Assembly (NCBI GenBank): GCA_963665775.2
Contig: CAXXTF010000001.1
Span: 768,001-832,000, forward strand
Direction: 5' to 3'
DNA length: 64,000 nucleotides
Source of the DNA: Dehalococcoidia bacterium
GTDB taxonomy: Bacteria; Chloroflexota; Dehalococcoidia; SM23-28-2; RBG-16-64-32
The translations under genes and the position numbers were made by a program. Of the stretch, positions 978 to 12,726 are shown in pieces; position 1 is the stretch's first letter; the number at the start of each line of letters is the position of its first letter. The notes beneath the pieces are model-generated. The model had not been told where the DNA came from and searched no databases. It saw nothing but the letters and a program-made list of their open reading frames with translations.

Positions 978-2012
978 TTGCCTACTGCCAAGAACGTTCA
1001 TCTTCCGATGCCGAAGTCTTGGGACGAACTGGAAATTATCGTCTCGGACCTATTCAGCGAGTTTTGGAAGGATCCCTACACGCAAAGAAATGGGCGGTTG
1101 GGTCAGTCCCAGCAGGGGGTCGATATTTTCGGTCAACCAGACCAATCTAGTCGATGGGCCGGTGTACAGGTCAAGCACAAAGAGCCCGGCAGCAATGTCA
1201 CCGAGGAAGAGATACGTGCGGAAATAGCGAAGGCAGATAGCTTTAATCCCGCTCTCGATCGGTTCACAATTGTGACCACAGCTCCGAGCGATTCGGCAAT
1301 CCAAGAGGTGGCCAGGGCGATTACGGAGGAGCGCCGAGCAGTCGGTGATTTCGGTGTTCACGTGTGGGGTTGGGCGGAGGTCGAGCGTCGGCTCGCGGAT
1401 TACCCCCATCTCCTCAAAAAGCACTACTCCGAGTTCTATGAGCATGTCGACGTGGAAAAGGGCCAAGGCCGCGAACTCGAAGCTATGGCTGAGCGCGTGA
1501 GGGAAACCACTGCCAGCCGGGGCCGGGCCAAGGCCTTGGTGCGGATCAAGAACCCTGATTCAGGTCTGGTGGAGAACTGCTATGGTCGCATATCAGGCAT
1601 CATTTGGGAGATGACTAATACCGTGAACAATCAGTTGCAGGTCTGGGACTATCCCATGTACGAAGGAGATGATTTCTTCCTGCACTGGAGTGGTCATGGC
1701 TCAAGACATCACAACTTTCGCACCGAGGCGATTCTCGATGTTGCCACAATGGCGGCTGGTGATGCTGACTATGCCCTTGCAACGGTTGATTACGGCGGCC
1801 GGCCCGCGCGGCTCTCCGCAGGTCAAAGCTACCGCATCACACTGGAGATAGCAGCGGATAATGCCGCGCCGATCACTCGAACGTATCGGTTGTGCTTGAG
1901 TACTGATGCCATTGACTTGGGGACAGACGCTGGAGGGCAGCGCCTTTTCGGAATTGCGGACACAGCCGTCCCTCCCAATGTCGTATTTCAGGATGTCATA
2001 GATACGCTATGA
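978..2012 (+). CDS. PD-(D/E)xK restriction-endonuclease-like N-terminal domain fused to an unknown C-terminal domain
   Basis: SWDELE...NGRLGQSQQGVDIFG...GVQVK motif series; own TATAAT at 876-881. Confidence 0.7.
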   Translation: MPTAKNVHLPMPKSWDELEIIVSDLFSEFWKDPYTQRNGRLGQSQQGVDIFGQPDQSSRWAGVQVKHKEPGSNVTEEEIRAEIAKADSFNPALDRFTIVTTAPSDSAIQEVARAITEERRAVGDFGVHVWGWAEVERRLADYPHLLKKHYSEFYEHVDVEKGQGRELEAMAERVRETTASRGRAKALVRIKNPDSGLVENCYGRISGIIWEMTNTVNNQLQVWDYPMYEGDDFFLHWSGHGSRHHNFRTEAILDVATMAAGDADYALATVDYGGRPARLSAGQSYRITLEIAADNAAPITRTYRLCLSTDAIDLGTDAGGQRLFGIADTAVPPNVVFQDVIDTL

Positions 2013-2187
2013 CCTGATATTGATGTGATCGACAGCGCCCTCTTCTACCGCTACGGCATCTGCTTGCCAAACATCTTCCCCTAAGCGCTTTGCTTCGCGA
2101 CTGAGAGTCGGAGCAAAAGCACCAAAATTATCGGCTGTTCACAGGAATGATTTCGGGTAGAGTCCCACAACAGCCAGCATGGAGCCG

Positions 2188-2235
2188 GCTTTCATCTGCA
2201 ACCCGGATGGCACCCCCTTTGGCGTCGCCGATGAC
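2188..2235 (+). repeat. Direct repeat of coding segment 3398-3445
   Basis: TTCATCTGCAACCC(G/A)GATGGCACCCCCTTTGGCG at 2191-2224 and 3401-3434, 1 mismatch in 34 nt. Confidence 0.9.
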
Positions 2236-2680
2236 GAATCCGCTAGTGAACCGTGTAGCGCCACGCCGGGCCATTTTCGGGCGTGCGTGTGTGCGTGTCC
2301 TATTTGCGAGTGCGCAGAGGGCTTGACCGGTGTAACCTGATAACTGACAGGGCGCTGATCCCGTCCTTTCGCTACTGTCAGGCCCTCCCGCGCTGCTACT
2401 GACCCACGGCGCAGGAGGGCCAACTTCATCACAGCGAAGCGCAGTCAGCGGCCCAGGCTGCTAGCCACTCTCTGACAGGCGAGGTTTCGCTTAACCTCCG
2501 TCTCCTTGCAGGCGTTATTTCAGGAAAGAGCGGCACATGTCCTGAGGGCGAGTGAGCGTCGCCGCAAAGGGCCTCGCAAACGCCCTCAGTGCCCTGTATA
2601 ATCGGCGACGATTAACTAAGAAATATGAAACCCCCGGCCAAGTTGGCCACAGCCAACATCACGTACCAAGGGAGGGAAAG

Positions 2681-5600
2681 ATGACAGTAGCACCGCCAAG
2701 ATCTCACCTGGGAAGATTAGCCGCTGCCGTGGTAATTATGGGTGCCATCGCGGCTGGCCTCGCCGTATGGCAGGTAGCATTTGCGCATGCGCCGTTCAAC
2801 AACGTTCAACCGAATATTCAAGTGGACTTCAACGCGAGCCCGGGCGTCAGGTCCGCCTCGTCCGGCGGATTAGGCACAGACGTGTACGCTTCGGCGTAGA
2901 AGGGCTCCTCGGTGACCGTCTGTACCGCTAACAACCAGCGGATAGGCACCACCGGGACCCGCCACTTCCAGTATGACGACGGTTTCGATTGGAGTATCTC
3001 CGACCACAGTGGCGCTTCCACGAGCAACAGCGGTAATGATTTCAGTGCCGACGGCCTCCAGCTCTGTACGACTATCACTGACGACGTAGCCACGGGCGGC
3101 CATACCAGGGTCAACCTGTTGTCCGTTGACGATACGGCGGACACGACCACAACACCGTCAGCCGACGTGCGCATTTTCTGGCTGGACATCAACCACGTCC
3201 TCCACACCGGCGAGATTCTGGACGGCGACACGGCCATCAACAAGCCCAGCTCGCACCACCGCATCATCACCGACGGCTGGGACTTCGGGCGCCAAGACAT
3301 CTACTTTAACCCTGATTGGTCATTTTCCTTGAGCATCACGATCCCGGAGATCGTGAGCGCTCAACAGGATGTGGACGGTGATGGCGACCTTGACGACGCC
3401 TTCATCTGCAACCCAGATGGCACCCCCTTTGGCGGCGACAATCAACAGGCGCGGGCAGTGCAGAGTGCTAATGGCGGCGCCGCAGGAACGTTAGAGATCT
3501 GCGTGGACATCCATAGCGACGACGAGGGTACGGACAGAATCAGACTGGAGTTCGACTTCGGTGCCGGTCGTTGTAACGGAACTTGTAGCCCCATACTGGA
3601 CAGCTTTTCCAGCGAATCCATTCGTTCCAACTTCCTGTTCAAGGAGTGGACGCACACGCCGGTGGAGATCGTGCACGTGCAGAGCTTCCCGACCAACACC
3701 GACGGTCAGGTTACCCAACCCAGTCAATGCCGATCTAGAGTTAGAGGTAATCGATAGCCTGATCGACGTTAACGGCGACGGCGTCGTTGACGGCGATGAC
3801 GACGGCGACGTCTGCGGCGTGGCGGTCTTCAGCGGCGAGGTCGACATCAACGCCAGTGGAGACGTCAACAGCGCCGACGACGGCAGCGTGTGTGGAGTGA
3901 CGGTCATCAGCGGTCAGGTTGACATCAACGACGATGGAACCACCGACACCGACGACGACGGTACACTTTTTGGCAGTATGGTCGGACACGACCTGCTGAG
4001 CGTGGACTCAGATGGCGACGGCTTCCTGGACCCAGGGGACACGATCAATAACGACGACAACTGGAACATCATCGGCTCGGCGCACGTGGTGCGGACCAGT
4101 GGCTGGCAGCCGAACTTCGTGGTGGACAGCTGGGAGCTAACGCCGCAGTTCGGGGCCGTCATCACGGTGGTGGCCGGGCCGGCCAGCTGCCAGAACGTGC
4201 TGGCCGACGCCGATTTGCTGGGCGACCCCTTTTTCGCCTTCTTGGATCTGATCGACCAGGATTACGAGGATGCGATCGCCAACGAGCAGTGCATCGCGTT
4301 CATCTCCTCGCGGCCTGGGGAGACCCTGATCAGCCTGAGCTACCACGATGAGGGTGCGGTGGCTGACGGGAACGAGATCAACCAGCCGGACGACTCCGAG
4401 GTGAACGTGGTTGGCCCGCTCATCAAGGAGTGGAGCGAACTGGTGGACTCGGTGATCATCCGGGTGCCGGCGGCCGGCTTCCCGAGCAGCGTGAAGGACG
4501 GCGGCTTCAGCGGCGGGGCGAACAACCACATCGACGACATTGACTGGCAGCACAACAACGACATTCAGGGGACGACGATCACCTCCGATGTGGAGAGGGC
4601 GGTCAAGGTCATCGAGATCTCCCATGGCGAGCACCAGACGGCGTTCGGTCCGGCGGAGGGGATCGGGGTGAAGGTAGACCCGTTCGGAATCGCCCACGTG
4701 GACGTGGACAATGCGGAAGTGGAAGTGACCGTGACGAGCATCAACGGCGGCCTTTCCAAGTGCACCATTGCCACGGTGACCACCTCGCTGGGGTCAAATT
4801 CTACGCTCCTGACCAGTTCTTCGCCTGTCAATGGCCGCACGGGCAGCGTGACAGCGGGGGGCAAGACCCTGGATCACGGTGGCGCCCTGATCACGATCAG
4901 TGCCGGTGGTCCAGGACGTCGCTGTGAAGAGATCGTTGTGATAACGGTCACAGAGAAGTACCCCATCCCGGTGAGCTCCAAGTTCAACGAGGTTGTGTAG
5001 TGGTTCAAGGTGAACTGGACGACCAAGGAGATCTCCAAGCAGCCGCACGTCCGGAAGGCGGGCGAGGAGATCATCCTGGAGCACAAGTGGGGCACGCCGA
5101 GATTCAACATAATCACACAGGACTGGGTGTGCGACCTCGACAGGGGTGGCACGCTGGAGAAGGACACGCTGGTCGTCTACACCGAGTTGAGCGGTCCGGG
5201 CGCCTTGGTTGGAGGTTACGAGAACCTGGGCCAGAGCGACGGAGCCGATTTCATCCCGTCGCTCTTCGGCGGCGACGTGGCCATAGCGGAGGTTACGGTC
5301 GATGGTGACGAGGAAGACGAGGACGATGACCTAATTAACAGCCAGCGTTGCATCTCTCGCGCTCTATACTCCAGCGAAGACCCGGGTGAGGTGGACGTAG
5401 AGGCCGTCCTCTGCCCAGGCGACTGCGACGCAGGCGGCATGACCCAAATCGACCCACCGATGTTGCAGCTCATGGTTGAATCGGCAGTGAACGGTGACGG
5501 GGGCTCGGAGCTACTAGACAAGCACCCGTTCCTGGTCTTCTACGTGAAGATATACAGCGTGGAGGTAAGCCTGGTTCCGGGCGATCTGGTGTTCAGTTCC

Positions 5601-7520
5601 ACCAATAAGGCGAACACGGTGAACGATGGGTTCCAGGTGGACCCGAATGAGGCGAAGTGGAGCCCGACGCCGGACGTATATGAGCCCGGCACTGAGGGCG
5701 ATCTGCCCAGCACCGACGTACGGGACGAGACGCGGATCGTCTCCGACTACTCGCTGGTGCGGGTGAACATCAAGGATTGGGTGCGCACGGCCAACTCCAG
5801 CGGCCGTCCGGACATCTGTCTGGACATGGACGGCGATGGCGGCGGCGACCAGGATGCGGGCATCCCCTACACCAGGACCGCCGACGGCACGGCCGTCACG
5901 ACCCACGCGGGCTGTCCGGACGCTGACGACGAGCTGTTGGCGGGCGGCTACTGGCTGCTGCCTGACGACTGGCAGCGGATGGCCGGGCAGCAGCCTGAGC
6001 TGATACGAGCGGAGTGGGATGTCCTGTGTGGACCCGGTGACACCAGCTGCGGCGGTGCCGGCCTGATCGGCCCCAAGCGGATGGTGGACACCCACGACAG
6101 CAAGGTCAGGTCCTGGGTGCACTACACGACGGTGGTGGCGACATACAAGGTTATCAATGGCGGGATCGACATTAACGGCGACGGCGTGGTAGACGGGGCG
6201 GACGACGGCGTGGTCTGCGGCTTCCGGGTTATCGACGGCAGTGTGGACATCAGCGGCGGTGGAGGCGTCACCTCGTCCGACGACGGGACATTGACGGACT
6301 CCACAACGCAGGTGTACAAGTCGATTCTGTCCAACGGCAAGATCAACATCTGGGATGCCCCGATGCCGCTGGAGAAGGTATCGATCTGGATCGACGGCTC
6401 CGGCAAGCTGTTGGCGGTGGACAAGGATGCGATCTACCCGGCGGGCAACAACCCGTTCTACCAGGTGTTCATCCCGGGGAACGATCTCATACCGGCCCAG
6501 CCTGGCGGCTCTCCTGGCTACGACTGGGACAGCACGATCCAGGGGCCATACGAGTTCTGGCACGCTCTCCAGTGGCTGACGCTGGGGGAGCACGTACAGG
6601 TGTACAGCGATAACCGTGGTCAGGCGATGGCGCTGATCTACGGCGATGACAACCTGAGCTTTACAGACTGCGCCATCGATTCGATCACGGGCACGCCGGT
6701 GTGTGAGCCGGGGGATGTGGTGGGCGACACGACAGTGAGTGCGATCGTCGACTACCCCTACTTCCGCAAGCACCGGGACGTCGAGGGGAACACCGCGACG
6801 ATCACCTGGGAGTGGGCCGGCTACAAGCGGGTAACCGTGGAGCCGGTGGCGGGTGACCCCAACCACACGTACGTGGTGGCCCACCTGCTGGACCGAGACG
6901 GCGAGTGCATAGGAGAGAACCCGACCACAGCCCCCAAGAAGTGGGGAGCCGGGGTGTCTGACGTGAGGCTGGAGCCGGTACACTTCGAGGTTAGCGGTGA
7001 CGGCGTCATCATCGGGGCCGCCCTGGACGGCGGCATCCTTCCCACCCTGAAGCTGGCCGTCGCTCTGGCTGGCGCGGCGGAGGACTTCGGCGGTACGCTG
7101 CCGCGGGCCCACGCCGGCAGTGCGGACGAGTGCCAGGCCTACATCCTGGTGGAACACGGGCGAGATGCCACGGTTCAGGTGTCCATCGGCTTCAACGAGC
7201 CTGAAGGGCTGATCAGGATGTCAATAGAGTTCCCGCAGCAGGAAGTTATCTGGGGCGACATAGATAACGACGGCGATGTGGATGCGGTGGACGCCCTGAA
7301 GATCATGCAGTGGATCGTTGGTCTGCCGGTGGCGACTGATCCGGCGATCGGCGAGGAAGTAACTCTAGTGAATGGAGCGGTAGAGACGCCGGTGATCTGG
7401 GGTGACGTAGACCGAGACGGAGACATCGACTCCGTGGACGCCCTGGAGATCCTGCAGTTCATAGTTGACGGGACGTCGGACACCGATCCGGCGATCGGCG
7501 ACACGGTGACGATCATCTAG
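2681..7520 (+). pseudogene. Giant secreted acidic surface protein (~1600 aa) with DxNxDG Ca-binding repeats and C-terminal dockerin; interrupted by two in-frame TAGs and one frameshift
   Basis: RBS plus ATG 2681 and signal peptide ending AFA; TAG 2897-2899 and 4998-5000 in frame with the next ORFs; frame change near 3710; two WGD(I/V)DxDGD(V/I)DxVDALxIxQ dockerin repeats. Confidence 0.8.
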
Positions 7521-7550
7521 GTTGAGCTACAGAAGGAGGGTAAACGGGAG

Positions 7551-8225
7551 ATGATAAAGACATTGGTAGAGCGCAGGGGGTCCTGGCTAGCGTTGCTAGC
7601 CGGGGCCACCCTGCTGGCCCTGGCCGGCTGGCTGGCGGTGACGGGACTGGCCCGGGCGGACGTGAGCTCGCTGGGTATAGGCTCGGCGACGGTAGAGCCC
7701 GGGGACGAGGTGACGCTGAACGTAAGCGCGGTGGCGACTGACCCTGGGGTCGGGGCCTACACGGTGGACGTGGTGTACGACGGCTCGCTGGTGGACGCCA
7801 CGGCGTGCACGTCAGCGGCTGGTGTGTGCAGCATAGACACGGTAGGGATCAACACGGTGCGGCTGACCGGCGGCTTCGCTGCTGGGTCCTCTGGGGATGT
7901 GGGCCTGGGCTCGATCACCTTCAGTGCCGGAGCGACAGAGGGCACGGCGGCGCTGACGGTGAGCATCGTGACGTTGGCTGACCCGGAGGGTGCCGACATC
8001 CTCGTGTCGCCGACAGACGGCAGCATCGCCATCGTGGCGCCTGCGGCGACGCCGACGTCGGAGCCCACGGCAGAGCCGACGCCGACGCCGGGCGGGCTAC
8101 CGCCCACCGGTGGCAGTCCGGCAGGCGGGACTGGTTCGGCGGGCTGGCTGTTGGCCGGGATGATCGGGCTGGGGCTGGCCGCGCTGGGAAGCGGCGCCTG
8201 GGCCGTGGCGCGGATGCGCCGGTAG
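7551..8225 (+). CDS. Cohesin-domain protein with signal peptide, Pro/Thr linker and LPPTG sorting signal
   Basis: beta-rich GAYTVDVVYD...LGSITF cohesin-like core; LPPTGG plus hydrophobic helix plus RMRR tail; AGGAGG RBS. Confidence 0.8.
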   Translation: MIKTLVERRGSWLALLAGATLLALAGWLAVTGLARADVSSLGIGSATVEPGDEVTLNVSAVATDPGVGAYTVDVVYDGSLVDATACTSAAGVCSIDTVGINTVRLTGGFAAGSSGDVGLGSITFSAGATEGTAALTVSIVTLADPEGADILVSPTDGSIAIVAPAATPTSEPTAEPTPTPGGLPPTGGSPAGGTGSAGWLLAGMIGLGLAALGSGAWAVARMRR

Positions 8226-8262
8226 ATAGCGCCAGCGACAGAGGAAGTTAGGCTTTAGCGAA

Positions 8263-8289
8263 AGGGGCCCCGGTTACCCCGGGGCCCCT
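8263..8289 (+). terminator. GC hairpin after the dockerin-cohesin operon
   Basis: AGGGGCCCCGG-ttacc-CCGGGGCCCCT perfect 11-bp stem; weak U-tract. Confidence 0.6.
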
Positions 8290-8377
8290 GGGCATTTGGA
8301 AGCAGCATCCTACTCATGGCTCCTAGAGACTCTGACTGGACAGGATCAACTCTCTGGCTGAAGGGCGTGTCGCCCCT

Positions 8378-8400
8378 GCACACGATCCACACTTAGTGTG
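8378..8400. repeat. Dispersed imperfect palindrome ACACKAT-N6-WTAGTGT
   Basis: GCACACGATCCACACTTAGTGTG; 21/23 identical to 14057-14079. Confidence 0.75.
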
Positions 8401-8755
8401 TGTGTCGGCTCCTATTCGTATTCAGATTCGATAAGGTGCCCATCTTCATATGGCTGCTAGGGCTCTAGAGTTCCATCCAGCGGATGTAATCCGCCAGATC
8501 CACCAGCCATAAAACACTTTTCGCCGTTTCGCCGCCTACGCCAGCATTGATCGACTGGGACAGCAAGCAACCAGCCCAGCGGGACGCACCTGAAACTGAC
8601 ATCGCGTGCCCGCGTTCTACATAGCATGATAGGTGCTGTCATCATCCGGAGGCCTTCATGACTGAGGCCACACGCCAGTCGTTCCTCGTCGACCGGATGA
8701 TCCTGGCTGCCATGCTCTACGAAGAAGTGGAGCGTAGTCAGAGGGATCGCAACAA

Positions 8756-10222
8756 TTGAAACTGGGCAAGGACAGCGGGTTCCTGTTCCTAGCGCTGCTG
8801 GCGGTGCTGTTTCTTTGGCTCTTGCTGGACCGTGCTAGGCCCAGGCTGGAGCGGCGGGAAGCCGGGATGGCGAGGCCAGAGCCAGCGCGAGCAGGCCCGG
8901 GAAAGCGCCGGACAAGAGTGCGCAGGCTGGCCCTGGGCCTGGGCACGCTGGTGGCCGCCCTGACAGCCACGGCGGGGACGCTGGCCCTGGTCTCCGCCGT
9001 CGCCAGCCCAGCGGGCGAGCCGGCAGCGGCGCTCTCGCCGACGCTCACCCCCATCCCGACCCGGTCCCCCATCCCGCTAGCGCCCGGTCCGGCGAACGCA
9101 CCGACCCTGGTGACCGCTGGCGGCGACCAGCCGATCGGACCGCAGGCGGCGCCAACCCTGGGAGACATCGCGGAGAACGTGGACCCCTCCACCGAGTTCC
9201 TGGCCCTGAGGGACACTCTGGCCGGACAGATCGAGGCCTACCGAGCGCTCGCTGGCGACATTGAGGTGGCGATAGCGGTGACGGACCTGCAAACCGACCA
9301 GACCATCTCGATTAGCGGGAACGTCGCCCAGCGCACCGGCTGCACGATCAACATGTTCGCCCTGTTCGCGGCCGTGGATGAGTTCCAGGCGGGTCGGGCC
9401 AGCCCTTCGCCCGTCGCCTACAATATCGCCGTCGGCATCGGCCACAGCTATCCACCGCAGGTGAAGCAGCTGCTCGATACGGTGTTCGGCTCGCACTGGA
9501 CGGGCGTTGCGCAGGCCGGCGAGATGATGCGCTCCTGGGGGATGGAGGCGTCCATATTCGATCACCTCCCCTACTATGGGGACGGCAGCCAGAACAACCT
9601 GCTCACCGCCCTGGAGACAAACGCCGTCCTTACGAGGCTCTACCGCGGCGAGATGTTCGAGCCGGAGTGGACAGCTTACACGCTCTCACGTCTACGGGAG
9701 ATCAAGCCGGGGCTCAACTATATGCTGCCTGGTCGGCTGCCCTCGGCCGCCACGGTGGCCCACAAAATCGGCTACTACTGGGATACGGATGGCTGGGTGA
9801 ACAACGATGCCGGGCTCGTGACCTTCACAGGCGCCGACGGTGAGGAGAAATCATACGCCATCACTTACCTTTCACAGCGGGCGCGAACGGAGGCGACCGG
9901 ATACGCCTTCGGGAGCTGGCTCTCGGGCATCGTCTGGGATTGGTTCGACGCCACCTACCGGCTGGAAACGGAGCCCTCGACCCCGCCGCCACCACCACCA
10001 CCACCTGCGCCCCGTCCACCGGCGCCGCTGCCCGCGCCATCCCCGACACTTACTCCGGAGCAGAGCCGATCGACCCCGCCGGCGCCCTCGCCGACGCCAT
10101 CGCCGGCGCCCGAGCCGAGCGCCACACCGACGCTTCCTGCTACGCCGTCGCCAGCGCCGGAGCCCACCCCGGCGGCCACACCCACGCCCCGGCCAGCGCC
10201 GTCCGCAGATCTGGAGCGCTAG
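8756..10222 (+). CDS. Membrane-anchored class A beta-lactamase-like (serine hydrolase fold) protein with Pro-rich tail
   Basis: VAIAVTDLQT, VAHKIG, NDAGLV motifs; SxxK position reads CTIN. Confidence 0.75.
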   Translation: MKLGKDSGFLFLALLAVLFLWLLLDRARPRLERREAGMARPEPARAGPGKRRTRVRRLALGLGTLVAALTATAGTLALVSAVASPAGEPAAALSPTLTPIPTRSPIPLAPGPANAPTLVTAGGDQPIGPQAAPTLGDIAENVDPSTEFLALRDTLAGQIEAYRALAGDIEVAIAVTDLQTDQTISISGNVAQRTGCTINMFALFAAVDEFQAGRASPSPVAYNIAVGIGHSYPPQVKQLLDTVFGSHWTGVAQAGEMMRSWGMEASIFDHLPYYGDGSQNNLLTALETNAVLTRLYRGEMFEPEWTAYTLSRLREIKPGLNYMLPGRLPSAATVAHKIGYYWDTDGWVNNDAGLVTFTGADGEEKSYAITYLSQRARTEATGYAFGSWLSGIVWDWFDATYRLETEPSTPPPPPPPPAPRPPAPLPAPSPTLTPEQSRSTPPAPSPTPSPAPEPSATPTLPATPSPAPEPTPAATPTPRPAPSADLER

Positions 10223-11631: not shown

Positions 11632-12726
11632 ATGAACACGGACAATCGCCAACCGGCTGACGCCGTCTTTGAGGGGGGCGGAGTCACAGGGATCGCCCTG
11701 ATCGGTGCCCTCAGCGTCATGGAGGAGACGTGGACCTGGGAGAACGTGGCGGGGACCTCGGCCGGCGCCATTGTGGCTGTCTTCACGGCCGCCGGCAAGT
11801 CCGCCCAGGATATCGATAAGATCCTCCGCAGCATCAGCCTGAGTGAACTCACCGACACCGGTTGGGAGGAGAAGGTGGACTGGATTCTCTCCCGGCTTTC
11901 GCCCCTCCGCCTCATTCCCGGTGTGGCGATGCTGAGAGAGCACATCTTCAGCGTCATCAAGGACTTCGGTATCTACGAGGGTGACCGATTCATGGAGCTG
12001 GTCACTGAGAATCTCCCGCCCGGCGTGCGCACCTTCGGCGACCTGTTGTACGATCCTGACCTTCCCAAAGATCATCCATATCGCTATAGGCTCCGCGTCG
12101 TGGCCTCCGACATCACCGCTAACCGGATGCTCGTGCTGCCCCAGGACATCCGCCATTTCGATAGAGACCCGGACAAGCTGACCATCGCCGAGGCCCTCCG
12201 GATGAGCATGAGCATCCCGATCTTCTTCGAGCCCTGGAAGCTGACGGACGCTAAGGGAACGGGCCACCTCATTGTGGACGGGGGGGTTCTCAGCAACTAC
12301 CCTATCTGGATGTTTGATGCTCCCATCGGCACGGATCCCACCTGGCCCACATTTGGGTTTGACCTGTACACTCCTGCGAACAAGGCGGATGGCCACCTCC
12401 CCTTTCCGAAGGAAGTAGACGAAGTCAAAAACCTCTTCGACTTCGGCAAGGGTATCTGGGACACAATGTTCTCGGCTATGGACGGCCGTTATATTGCCCA
12501 GCGCCACTGGGCCAGGACCATCGCCATTGACAACTGCAACATCTCCACGGCCCAGTTTGACCTGTCGCGTCAGGACGAAGACCGACTACGGGGGTCAGGC
12601 GTGAGAGCGGCCAGGGATTTCATGGAGGCCTGGGGAGATCCGGTAGAGGGGTTCTCGCGTTGGAAAGCCCAGTACCGTGGCGAGGTGGAGGAGGCCCAGC
12701 GATTTGCCGCCGATCTCTACACCTGA
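11632..12726 (+). CDS. Patatin-like phospholipase
   Basis: GGGVTG oxyanion loop, GTSAG nucleophile, SMSIPIFF, DGG. Confidence 0.93.
   Translation: MNTDNRQPADAVFEGGGVTGIALIGALSVMEETWTWENVAGTSAGAIVAVFTAAGKSAQDIDKILRSISLSELTDTGWEEKVDWILSRLSPLRLIPGVAMLREHIFSVIKDFGIYEGDRFMELVTENLPPGVRTFGDLLYDPDLPKDHPYRYRLRVVASDITANRMLVLPQDIRHFDRDPDKLTIAEALRMSMSIPIFFEPWKLTDAKGTGHLIVDGGVLSNYPIWMFDAPIGTDPTWPTFGFDLYTPANKADGHLPFPKEVDEVKNLFDFGKGIWDTMFSAMDGRYIAQRHWARTIAIDNCNISTAQFDLSRQDEDRLRGSGVRAARDFMEAWGDPVEGFSRWKAQYRGEVEEAQRFAADLYT

Follow-up and report, generated by a model that had tools for sequence, protein, structure and literature searches.

Two adjacent genes in a Dehalococcoidia-like Chloroflexota genome raise the question of whether a small cohesin-bearing protein could anchor a very large dockerin-ended protein to the cell surface outside any cellulosome. 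The genes lie at positions 2681–8289 of the window, that is, the whole analysed stretch of 64,000 nucleotides (nt) (positions 768,001 to 832,000 of contig CAXXTF010000001.1, assembly GCA_963665775.2), in the order cargo gene, anchor gene, hairpin. Little is known of how Chloroflexota, and Dehalococcoidia-like lineages especially, build and decorate their envelopes. The locus is read here, with a probability of about 0.7, as one copy of a cargo-then-anchor module belonging to a genome-wide, non-cellulosomal system of cohesin-dockerin surface display. A sequence-only reading of the same DNA had described a minimal two-gene tether for a giant surface protein; what it observed was partly confirmed, and its interpretation is partly supported.

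The anchor gene and its flanks comprise the following features:

7551–8225, plus strand: anchor gene, a single uninterrupted open reading frame (ORF) of 224 amino acids (aa), with TAG as stop codon
Residues 1–36: N-terminal leader, basic and then hydrophobic, with the end ARA/DV at residues 34–38
Residues ~37–162 (nt 7659–8036): cohesin domain of ~125 residues
Residues 163–182 (nt 8037–8096): linker rich in Pro and Thr (PT linker)
Residues 183–187 (nt 8097–8111): LPPTG
Between LPPTG and the hydrophobic segment: G/S/P spacer of 11 residues
Residues 198–220 (nt 8142–8210): hydrophobic, putative transmembrane segment
Residues 221–224 (nt 8211–8222): basic tail RMRR
7533–7540, plus strand: Shine-Dalgarno-like AAGGAGGG, 5' of the anchor gene ATG, as read from the sequence
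8263–8289, plus strand: G+C hairpin with an 11-bp stem and a 5-nt loop, 38 nt past the anchor stop

The central domain of this protein is a cohesin by fold, judging from its structural model. The AlphaFold2 (AF2) prediction, made with 14 sequences, reached a mean predicted local distance difference test (pLDDT) value of 78.2, with 10-residue blocks over residues 41–170 at 82–97 and a confident beta-sandwich core mostly above 90. A Foldseek comparison of the model with the PDB returned 96 matches at E<=0.001, and cohesin modules account for 37 of the 38 rows listed. The top row is 6kgf_A (E 5.2e-10, template modelling (TM) score on target 0.74, root-mean-square deviation 2.3 A over 143 columns); the rows also include the non-cellulosomal cohesin 2xdh of Archaeoglobus fulgidus, ranked sixth (E 4e-9, TM score on target 0.72), and the ScaE cohesin 2zf9_A (E 3.5e-6, TM score on target 0.51). 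Model and matches together point to the nine-stranded beta-sandwich (jelly-roll) by which cohesins are defined, and the cohesin-like domain proposed from the letters was borne out in this way. In profile searches the Pfam Cohesin family PF00963 matches residues 42–161 over profile positions 4–139 of 139, short of its gathering score (21.3 bits against 24.1, E 3.3e-4), a search of the genome with the same profile gave the anchor cohesin 22.3 bits, and a precomputed PF00963 match is present in 5 of 15 non-self homologues of the anchor protein.

The remaining parts of the anchor protein (leader, PT linker, LPPTG, hydrophobic segment and basic tail) were all found as first described, in one intact ORF. 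Leader, LPXTG-like pentapeptide, hydrophobic segment and positively charged tail together form the layout of a sortase substrate. This layout is conserved: among 14 aligned homologues (16 were found, two fragments being excluded), the hydrophobic segment and basic end occur in every one, and 13 carry [LIV]PxTGG, in which the X position is variously P, E, D, K, A, S or Q. Conservation of P, T and GG around a free X indicates selection on a recognition motif rather than on a mere spacer. Ends of the type LP[PGT][TA]GG, hydrophobic segment and basic residues occur in 8 ORFs genome-wide, selected by eye from 31 regular-expression matches, the other 23 being set aside on the same kind of inspection as non-coding frames or chance matches. 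The genome encodes one clear sortase (C2:1116237-1116680), which scores 68.2–69.5 bits against Pfam (cut-off 26.6) and 42.4 bits against TIGR01076 (cut-off 39.35). Genes for peptidoglycan synthesis, sought together with the sortase, are likewise present, with matches to four penicillin-binding protein transpeptidases, two SEDS proteins (FtsW/RodA) and one MraY. The 224-aa protein, annotated as hypothetical, could be renamed a putative wall-anchored cohesin.

The anchor gene starts 30 nt past the cargo stop. The hairpin noticed 3' of it is real as a predicted structure: the 95-nt region folds with a minimum free energy of -43.3 kcal/mol (z -2.86), equalled by 0 of 200 shuffles. It likely marks the transcript end, though it has no U-tract; a terminator scan did not include it among its calls. 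A sigma-70 promoter scan of 2000–9000 gave 0 sites, and the sequencing runs listed as carrying the locus include no RNA dataset.

Upstream of the anchor gene, the cargo region falls into several pieces:

2681–2899, plus strand: piece 1, with ATG after GGGAGG and a signal-anchor-like N-terminus (MTVAPPRSHLGRLAAAVVIMGAIAAGLAVWQVAFAHA), ending at the in-frame TAG 2897–2899
2900–3757, plus strand: piece 2, in the phase of piece 1, a lineage-specific N-terminal region closed by TAG 3755–3757
3741–5000, plus strand: piece 3, in phase 0, with Asp-rich repeat modules (IDVNGDGVVDGDDDGDVCGV...) and the onset of the part found also in homologues, ending at the in-frame TAG 4998–5000
5001–7199, plus strand: piece 4, the conserved, beta-rich body, recorded as the 836-aa gene P0021 from GTG 5010
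7200–7520, plus strand: C-terminal dockerin module of two repeats, with the stop TAG 7518–7520

Both dockerin repeats sit in the last 106 codons before 7520. Their 12-residue loops of EF-hand type, DIDNDGDVDAVD (7257–7292) and DVDRDGDIDSVD (7404–7439), follow the pattern D-x-D-x-D-G-x-[VI]-D-x-x-D with acidic residues at positions 1, 3, 5, 9 and 12, and are followed by the segments ALKIMQWIVGL and ALEILQFIVDG, which by their pattern would be helical. Tandem segments of ~22 residues, each an EF-hand-like loop and then a helix, are what distinguishes the dockerin family (PF00404); with both in-frame stretches summed, Dockerin_1 scores 32.9 bits. Asp makes up 11.4% of the 1611 read-through cargo codons, and internal repeats of the type IDVNGDGVVDG..DDG.VCG occur. 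Degenerate tandem repeats of 60–78 nt at 3763–3918 and ~6170–6300 encode Asp/Gly-rich modules of the IDVNGDGVVDGDDDGDVCGV kind, and a module like these returns further along the protein.

The pairing of a dockerin-tipped gene with a cohesin-LPxTG gene is not confined to the window. A paralogous pair, intact in both genes, stands at the beginning of contig 2 in the genome (2.35 Mb, 2 contigs); its cargo of 1043 aa is 52% identical to the window cargo over the C-terminal 400 residues, with an N-terminus of like kind, and its anchor is 72% identical to that of the window and has LPPTGG. The synteny check in relatives, proposed with the sequence-only reading, showed that the pair is conserved: a dockerin-tipped gene lies directly 5' of a cohesin-LPxTG gene in five other loci (the host's own contig 2, two loci of G019, and one each of G036 and G015), so that members of two families within the order are represented. 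Three more relatives have their cohesin gene at or close to the end of a contig, and in G001 the 690 nt upstream of the cohesin gene contain no long same-strand frame.

The cargo family itself is represented by 30 proteins related to the body of the paralogue (P0019–P0048), all unnamed or "hypothetical", with Dehalococcoidia given in the source records of 3 and Thermoflexaceae in that of 1, names that make a Chloroflexota host plausible. The family swaps its C-terminal module. A C-terminal dockerin is present in 5 of the 30, P0031 has its own hydrophobic/RRRR end, and most of the remaining members finish with a conserved domain of ~60 residues that is not a dockerin and is of one of two kinds. 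Some members also have Pfam matches to TSP_3 (thrombospondin type 3, Ca-binding). One further member, P0020, is a protein of 969 aa from an 11.8-kb metagenome contig. It is 77% identical to the contig-2 cargo through "KSVQFP", just ahead of the dockerin, and over its final 55 residues it matches the PT linker, LPPTGG, hydrophobic segment and basic tail of the contig-2 anchor at 86% identity. Here the cargo is joined straight to the LPPTGG tail, and both dockerin and cohesin are absent. Such a fusion is expected if the sole role of the dockerin-cohesin contact is to attach the cargo to its anchor, and it thus fits the idea of a tether.

The body of the cargo gave little in sequence searches. 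Against Pfam the cargo frames matched nothing besides Dockerin_1 at E<=1, in agreement with the claim that the giant protein has no CAZy domain; NCBIfam gave no family, and a phmmer search of the PDB gave only weak dockerin matches (E 0.26–0.86). An AF2 model of the 351 conserved residues of the contig-2 paralogue has moderate confidence (mean pLDDT 63) and, in Foldseek, a weak likeness to Ig-like domains of Gram-positive pilins, MSCRAMM and AgI-II proteins (E ~1e-3, TM score 0.2–0.3). The body is probably built of tandem Ig-like beta-sandwiches, with no family membership implied, and as modelled it fits a structural or adhesive surface protein.

The copy in the window was described earlier as one secreted, Asp-rich protein of ~1600 aa with two dockerin repeats; the Asp-rich composition and the repeats stand, and the single ORF does not. 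The region 2681–7520 is 4840 nt long, which is not divisible by 3, and its frame changes from phase 2 to phase 0 (+1) at roughly 3700–3740. The longest unbroken ORF (5010–7520, 836 aa) is without a signal peptide, the signal anchor now being confined to a piece of 72 codons. The G+C content at third codon positions (GC3) gives a coding signal in phase 2 over ~2700–3700 (0.65–0.81, with 0.70–0.81 over 2700–3450) and in phase 0 over ~3750–7520 (0.72–0.91). This signal runs through both in-frame TAGs and changes phase near 3700, which indicates one long gene with a broken frame rather than four genes. The block around TAG 4998 is unbroken in all five homologue alignments read, from eight loci matched, with Gln opposite the TAG in the own paralogue and G036, and Glu in G033, G031 and G040; the paralogue aligns across it without interruption over 4056–6089.

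Assembly error is ruled out as the origin of the breaks, since Logan contigs of three runs (X1, X4 and X5; 3 samples, 2 studies) cover 2600–7604 with 0 gaps and with 0, 0 and 1 differences, the single difference being G>T at 3780. Reassignment of TAG is ruled out as well: TAG closes more long ORFs than either of the other stop codons (950 of 2004) and also both genes of the locus, the best match in a PylS profile search of the genome reaches 20.5 bits against a cut-off of 178, and a CUA anticodon is absent from all 50 tRNAs that ARAGORN detected. With both TAG nonsense codons and the +1 frameshift reproduced in the contigs of three runs, and TAG not reassigned, the cargo gene 2681–7520 looks like a recent pseudogene, and the "giant adhesin" of the window should be annotated as such. 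Broken three times, the cargo gene of the window probably contributes no displayed protein.

The N-terminal part of the cargo (P0001) has no match in 40 relatives and none at E<0.05 among the 30 family proteins. Aligned by blastp, its residues 1–46 are 38% identical to residues 1–45 of P0019 (E 0.055), and the intact contig-2 paralogue begins with an N-terminus similar to that of the cargo. In the same area a 45-nt direct repeat, 89% identical, connects 2188–2232 with 3398–3442, so that a fragment of cargo coding sequence (AFICNPDGTPFG...) recurs ~450 nt upstream of the cargo start; the repeat may be what is left of an earlier copy, or the 5' end may have been rearranged. The G+C content is lower (0.56–0.59) over ~1000–4000 of the window.

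The notion of a minimal two-gene system did not survive the search of the genome for other dockerin proteins. With profiles built from alignments made here, 19 dockerin ORFs and 3 cohesin ORFs were counted, each cohesin ORF with one cohesin. The third of these, apart from the anchors of the window and contig 2, belongs to a second cluster:

C1:17999-22880, minus strand: second cohesin-dockerin cluster of protease, adaptor and esterase
C1:19974-20693, minus strand: third cohesin ORF, with a leader, a cohesin 52% identical to that of the window, and a dockerin instead of the LPxTG end

This 238-aa leader-cohesin-dockerin protein, ending in a dockerin rather than in LPxTG, is interpreted as an adaptor. 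It is flanked by a dockerin-bearing M10-like metalloprotease of 616 aa with an FN3-like part, and by a dockerin-bearing esterase of 650 aa, similar to polyhydroxyalkanoate (PHA) depolymerases, with a long PT linker and a C-terminal hydrophobic/basic end of its own. A comparable row is seen in a relative, where an adaptor ORF of 306 aa (cohesin-dockerin) lies directly 3' of the cargo-anchor pair (G019:C1:3175-6303), putting three module types side by side. On the remaining dockerin ORFs, peptidase domains of M23, trypsin-like and S8 type occur, as do a GSDH/beta-propeller and a GmrSD_C/Excalibur pair. Four of the dockerins are N-terminal or internal rather than C-terminal.

Searched against Pfam (E<=0.001–0.01), the 19 dockerin ORFs gave no glycoside hydrolase, no carbohydrate-binding module (CBM) and no other CAZy family. 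The lack of CBMs on the cargo, of carbohydrate-active enzymes (CAZymes) and of a multi-cohesin scaffoldin indicates that the system is not a cellulosome. Two dockerin subtypes can be told apart. In 17 of the 19, Cys occupies loop position 4, mostly with "CP" after the helix, a motif that may form a disulfide clasp; the only two that are free of Cys are those of the window cargo and its contig-2 paralogue, both adjoining LPPTGG cohesins. The location of the Cys-free dockerins beside the anchored cohesins hints at a private pairing.

Could the anchored cohesin have a different partner? It might be fixed to the wall and bind the Cys-type dockerins of the enzymes, or it might be an Ig-like stalk for some other ligand, adjacency to the cargo then reflecting co-regulation. 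Such an arrangement would provide a docking site for the 17 dockerins of the other subtype, which belong to proteases, an esterase and a dehydrogenase-like protein; it would also suit the ratio of three cohesins to 19 dockerins, and a cohesin that remains intact beside a broken neighbour. It is nevertheless judged unlikely, since the sole Cys-free dockerins are exactly those next to LPPTGG cohesins, the gene order recurs in the five other loci, and the protein that P0020 fuses to the anchor tail comes from the cargo family and is no enzyme. A similarly low probability is given to the proposal that LPPTGG, hydrophobic segment and RMRR form only a membrane anchor unprocessed by sortase, which would leave the cohesin at the membrane and not on peptidoglycan. 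The anchor protein matches no Gram_pos_anchor or LPXTG-anchor model, the sortase gene is unlinked and weakly classifiable, and we know of no documented sortase action on any Chloroflexota envelope; against this stand the retention of P, T and GG with a free X, the same LPxTGG/hydrophobic/basic design in seven other ORFs of the genome, and a sortase that passes the Pfam and TIGR01076 cut-offs. Quite improbable is a cargo gene that still functions, whether by TAG read-through together with ribosomal frameshifting or through separate products of its pieces, such as the 836-aa ORF with its dockerin. Its pieces are long, free of further stops and coding-like in GC3 throughout, TAG closes the phase at all three sites, a +1 step at CGA-TAG-C (3752–3758) would reach the downstream phase, and the sequence is identical in samples dated 2023–2025. 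Read-through is opposed by the status of TAG as the ordinary stop, with neither PylS nor a CUA tRNA; the internal repeats put the phase-0 reading upstream of 3755, so that the shift is not at that TAG; and the dockerin of the 836-aa piece, made without a signal peptide, would remain inside the cell.

Several points weigh against the display module itself. Both Pfam families expected for the pair were matched, and both fall below their gathering scores on the proteins, Cohesin with 21.3 against 24.1 bits on the anchor and Dockerin_1 with 17.1 against 22.9 on the cargo. The anchor protein (P0003) gave no match to Gram_pos_anchor (PF00746) or to an NCBIfam LPXTG-anchor model at E<=1. Curated LPXTG-anchor profiles are short and were built mostly on sequences of Firmicutes and Actinobacteria. 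The sortase is far below all NCBIfam sortase-class cut-offs (nearest class F, 77 versus 166) and lies ~1.1 Mb into contig 2, adjoining no substrate. The cohesin family is patchy, with matches at E<=1e-8 in 9 of 151 genomes from an even sampling of the class; matches covering the cohesin domain were listed for ~14 genomes among the 40 nearest relatives, and a related-locus search with the anchor protein alone gave 4 loci, the cohesin domain being covered in one, an Anaerolineales metagenome-assembled genome, at 29% identity. P0020, known from its single metagenome contig, is possibly a chimeric assembly. One of the three Logan runs may be the source of the assembly, which would leave fewer than three independent contigs, and the N-terminal third of the cargo (2900–3700) has no homologue, so that the ancestral reading and the site of the frameshift are only approximate. 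Finally, the binding of cohesin to dockerin is something we infer; a complex prediction with cohesin residues 36–166, the dockerin and 2 Ca reached 0.20 (mark 0.32), a score that speaks neither for binding nor against it.

The cargo-then-anchor module would work as follows. The anchor product would be exported through its leader, and the single clear sortase of the genome could then cut it at LPPT/GG, after Thr186, and link it to peptidoglycan, leaving one cohesin outside the wall on a stalk of ~20 Pro/Thr-rich residues. The ancestral cargo would have been a secreted, Asp-rich protein of ~1600 aa, probably with Ig-like domains and a two-repeat dockerin with Ca loops; loaded with Ca, this dockerin would plug into the cohesin of its own anchor. 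The intact pair on contig 2 probably continues the function of the dead window cargo, and the window cohesin may serve other dockerin proteins or be in the course of being lost.

A wider picture can be offered only tentatively. In it, a family-level lineage of Dehalococcoidia-like Chloroflexota would possess a complete plug-and-socket system not intended for plant walls: two single cohesins anchored to the wall would hold giant Asp-rich, Ig-like surface proteins by a private, Cys-free dockerin subtype, the adaptor and the Cys-type dockerins would gather ~17 secreted proteases, esterases and other enzymes on the surface as a "degradosome" that attacks proteins and polyesters, and cargoes would turn over quickly by duplication, decay and fusion. 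Were it true, the window would illustrate that turnover, with a dead cargo gene beside a live anchor. How such modules come and go is illustrated by the natural fusion and by the decayed copy. What makes the locus valuable is less the pair of the window than the system across the genome, its two dockerin subtypes and that fusion, and the set of parts is small and testable (3 cohesins, 2 dockerin subtypes, 1 sortase).

Other genes near the pair look unrelated to it:

978–2012: ORF of 344 aa in the low-G+C stretch, with a weak Mrr-type nuclease match
8756–10222: gene of 488 aa with a Beta-lactamase2 domain and a weak DUF5671 match
11632–12726: patatin-like phospholipase gene

Stop codons of the genome, counted in stop-to-stop frames of at least 250 codons, are 950 TAG, 727 TGA and 327 TAA, which is unusual at 63% G+C, and ARAGORN reported a tRNA-SeC with the anticodon TCA.

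The closest known arrangement is the anchoring of CttA, and likewise of ScaB, by ScaE in the cellulosome of Ruminococcus flavefaciens. According to a passage on ScaE, this protein has a single cohesin and an LPXTG motif and is linked to the wall by sortase (PMC12484212). ScaE holds the non-catalytic protein CttA through an X-dockerin, as stated in another account (PMC4266597). The window shares with it a single cohesin with an LPXTG-type anchor that would hold at the surface a large, non-catalytic partner ending in a dockerin. In the sca cluster cttA presumably lies directly 5' of scaE, the same order as in the window. An anchor of cohesin and LPXTG that holds a non-catalytic dockerin protein is thus not new. 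The differences are that the dockerin of the window cargo is not preceded by an X-module, that the window cohesin is nearer in fold to type I cohesins (TM score on target 0.72–0.74) than to ScaE (0.51), that the cargo has neither a CBM nor a further Pfam domain and is broken in this copy, that no CAZyme or multi-cohesin scaffoldin is found among the 19 dockerin ORFs, in contrast to the cellulosome of R. flavefaciens, and that the host is Chloroflexota-like and not a Firmicute.

Cohesins and dockerins are also known outside cellulosomes. The survey of Peer et al. from 2009 reportedly recorded both modules in organisms without cellulosomes, also on proteases. The system described here is similar to these modules, exemplified by 2xdh of A. 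fulgidus, in its occurrence outside cellulosomes and on proteases, and differs in having a conserved gene pair, a sortase-type anchor and a cohesin-dockerin adaptor. Clusters of small cohesins in the ESM Atlas (scores 0.90–0.92) share the succession of leader, one cohesin, linker and C-terminal sorting signal, a likeness of features without alignment; they carry Gram_pos_anchor in bacteria of the candidate phyla radiation (CPR) or PGF-CTERM in archaea, one cluster of 294 members having Cohesin in 81% and Gram_pos_anchor in 12%, and they have other cargoes and other sorting enzymes. In the literature searched, which excluded subscription journals, no description of such a system in Chloroflexota was found; papers on cohesin, dockerin and Chloroflexi are, by title, lignocellulose or metagenome surveys, and one published passage gives no dockerin for five Anaerolineae genomes. 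If the pair works as proposed, sortase anchoring and docking would together hold large surface proteins, perhaps also proteases and esterases, independently of any cellulose breakdown, and the ScaE type of anchoring scheme would extend to another phylum and another purpose.

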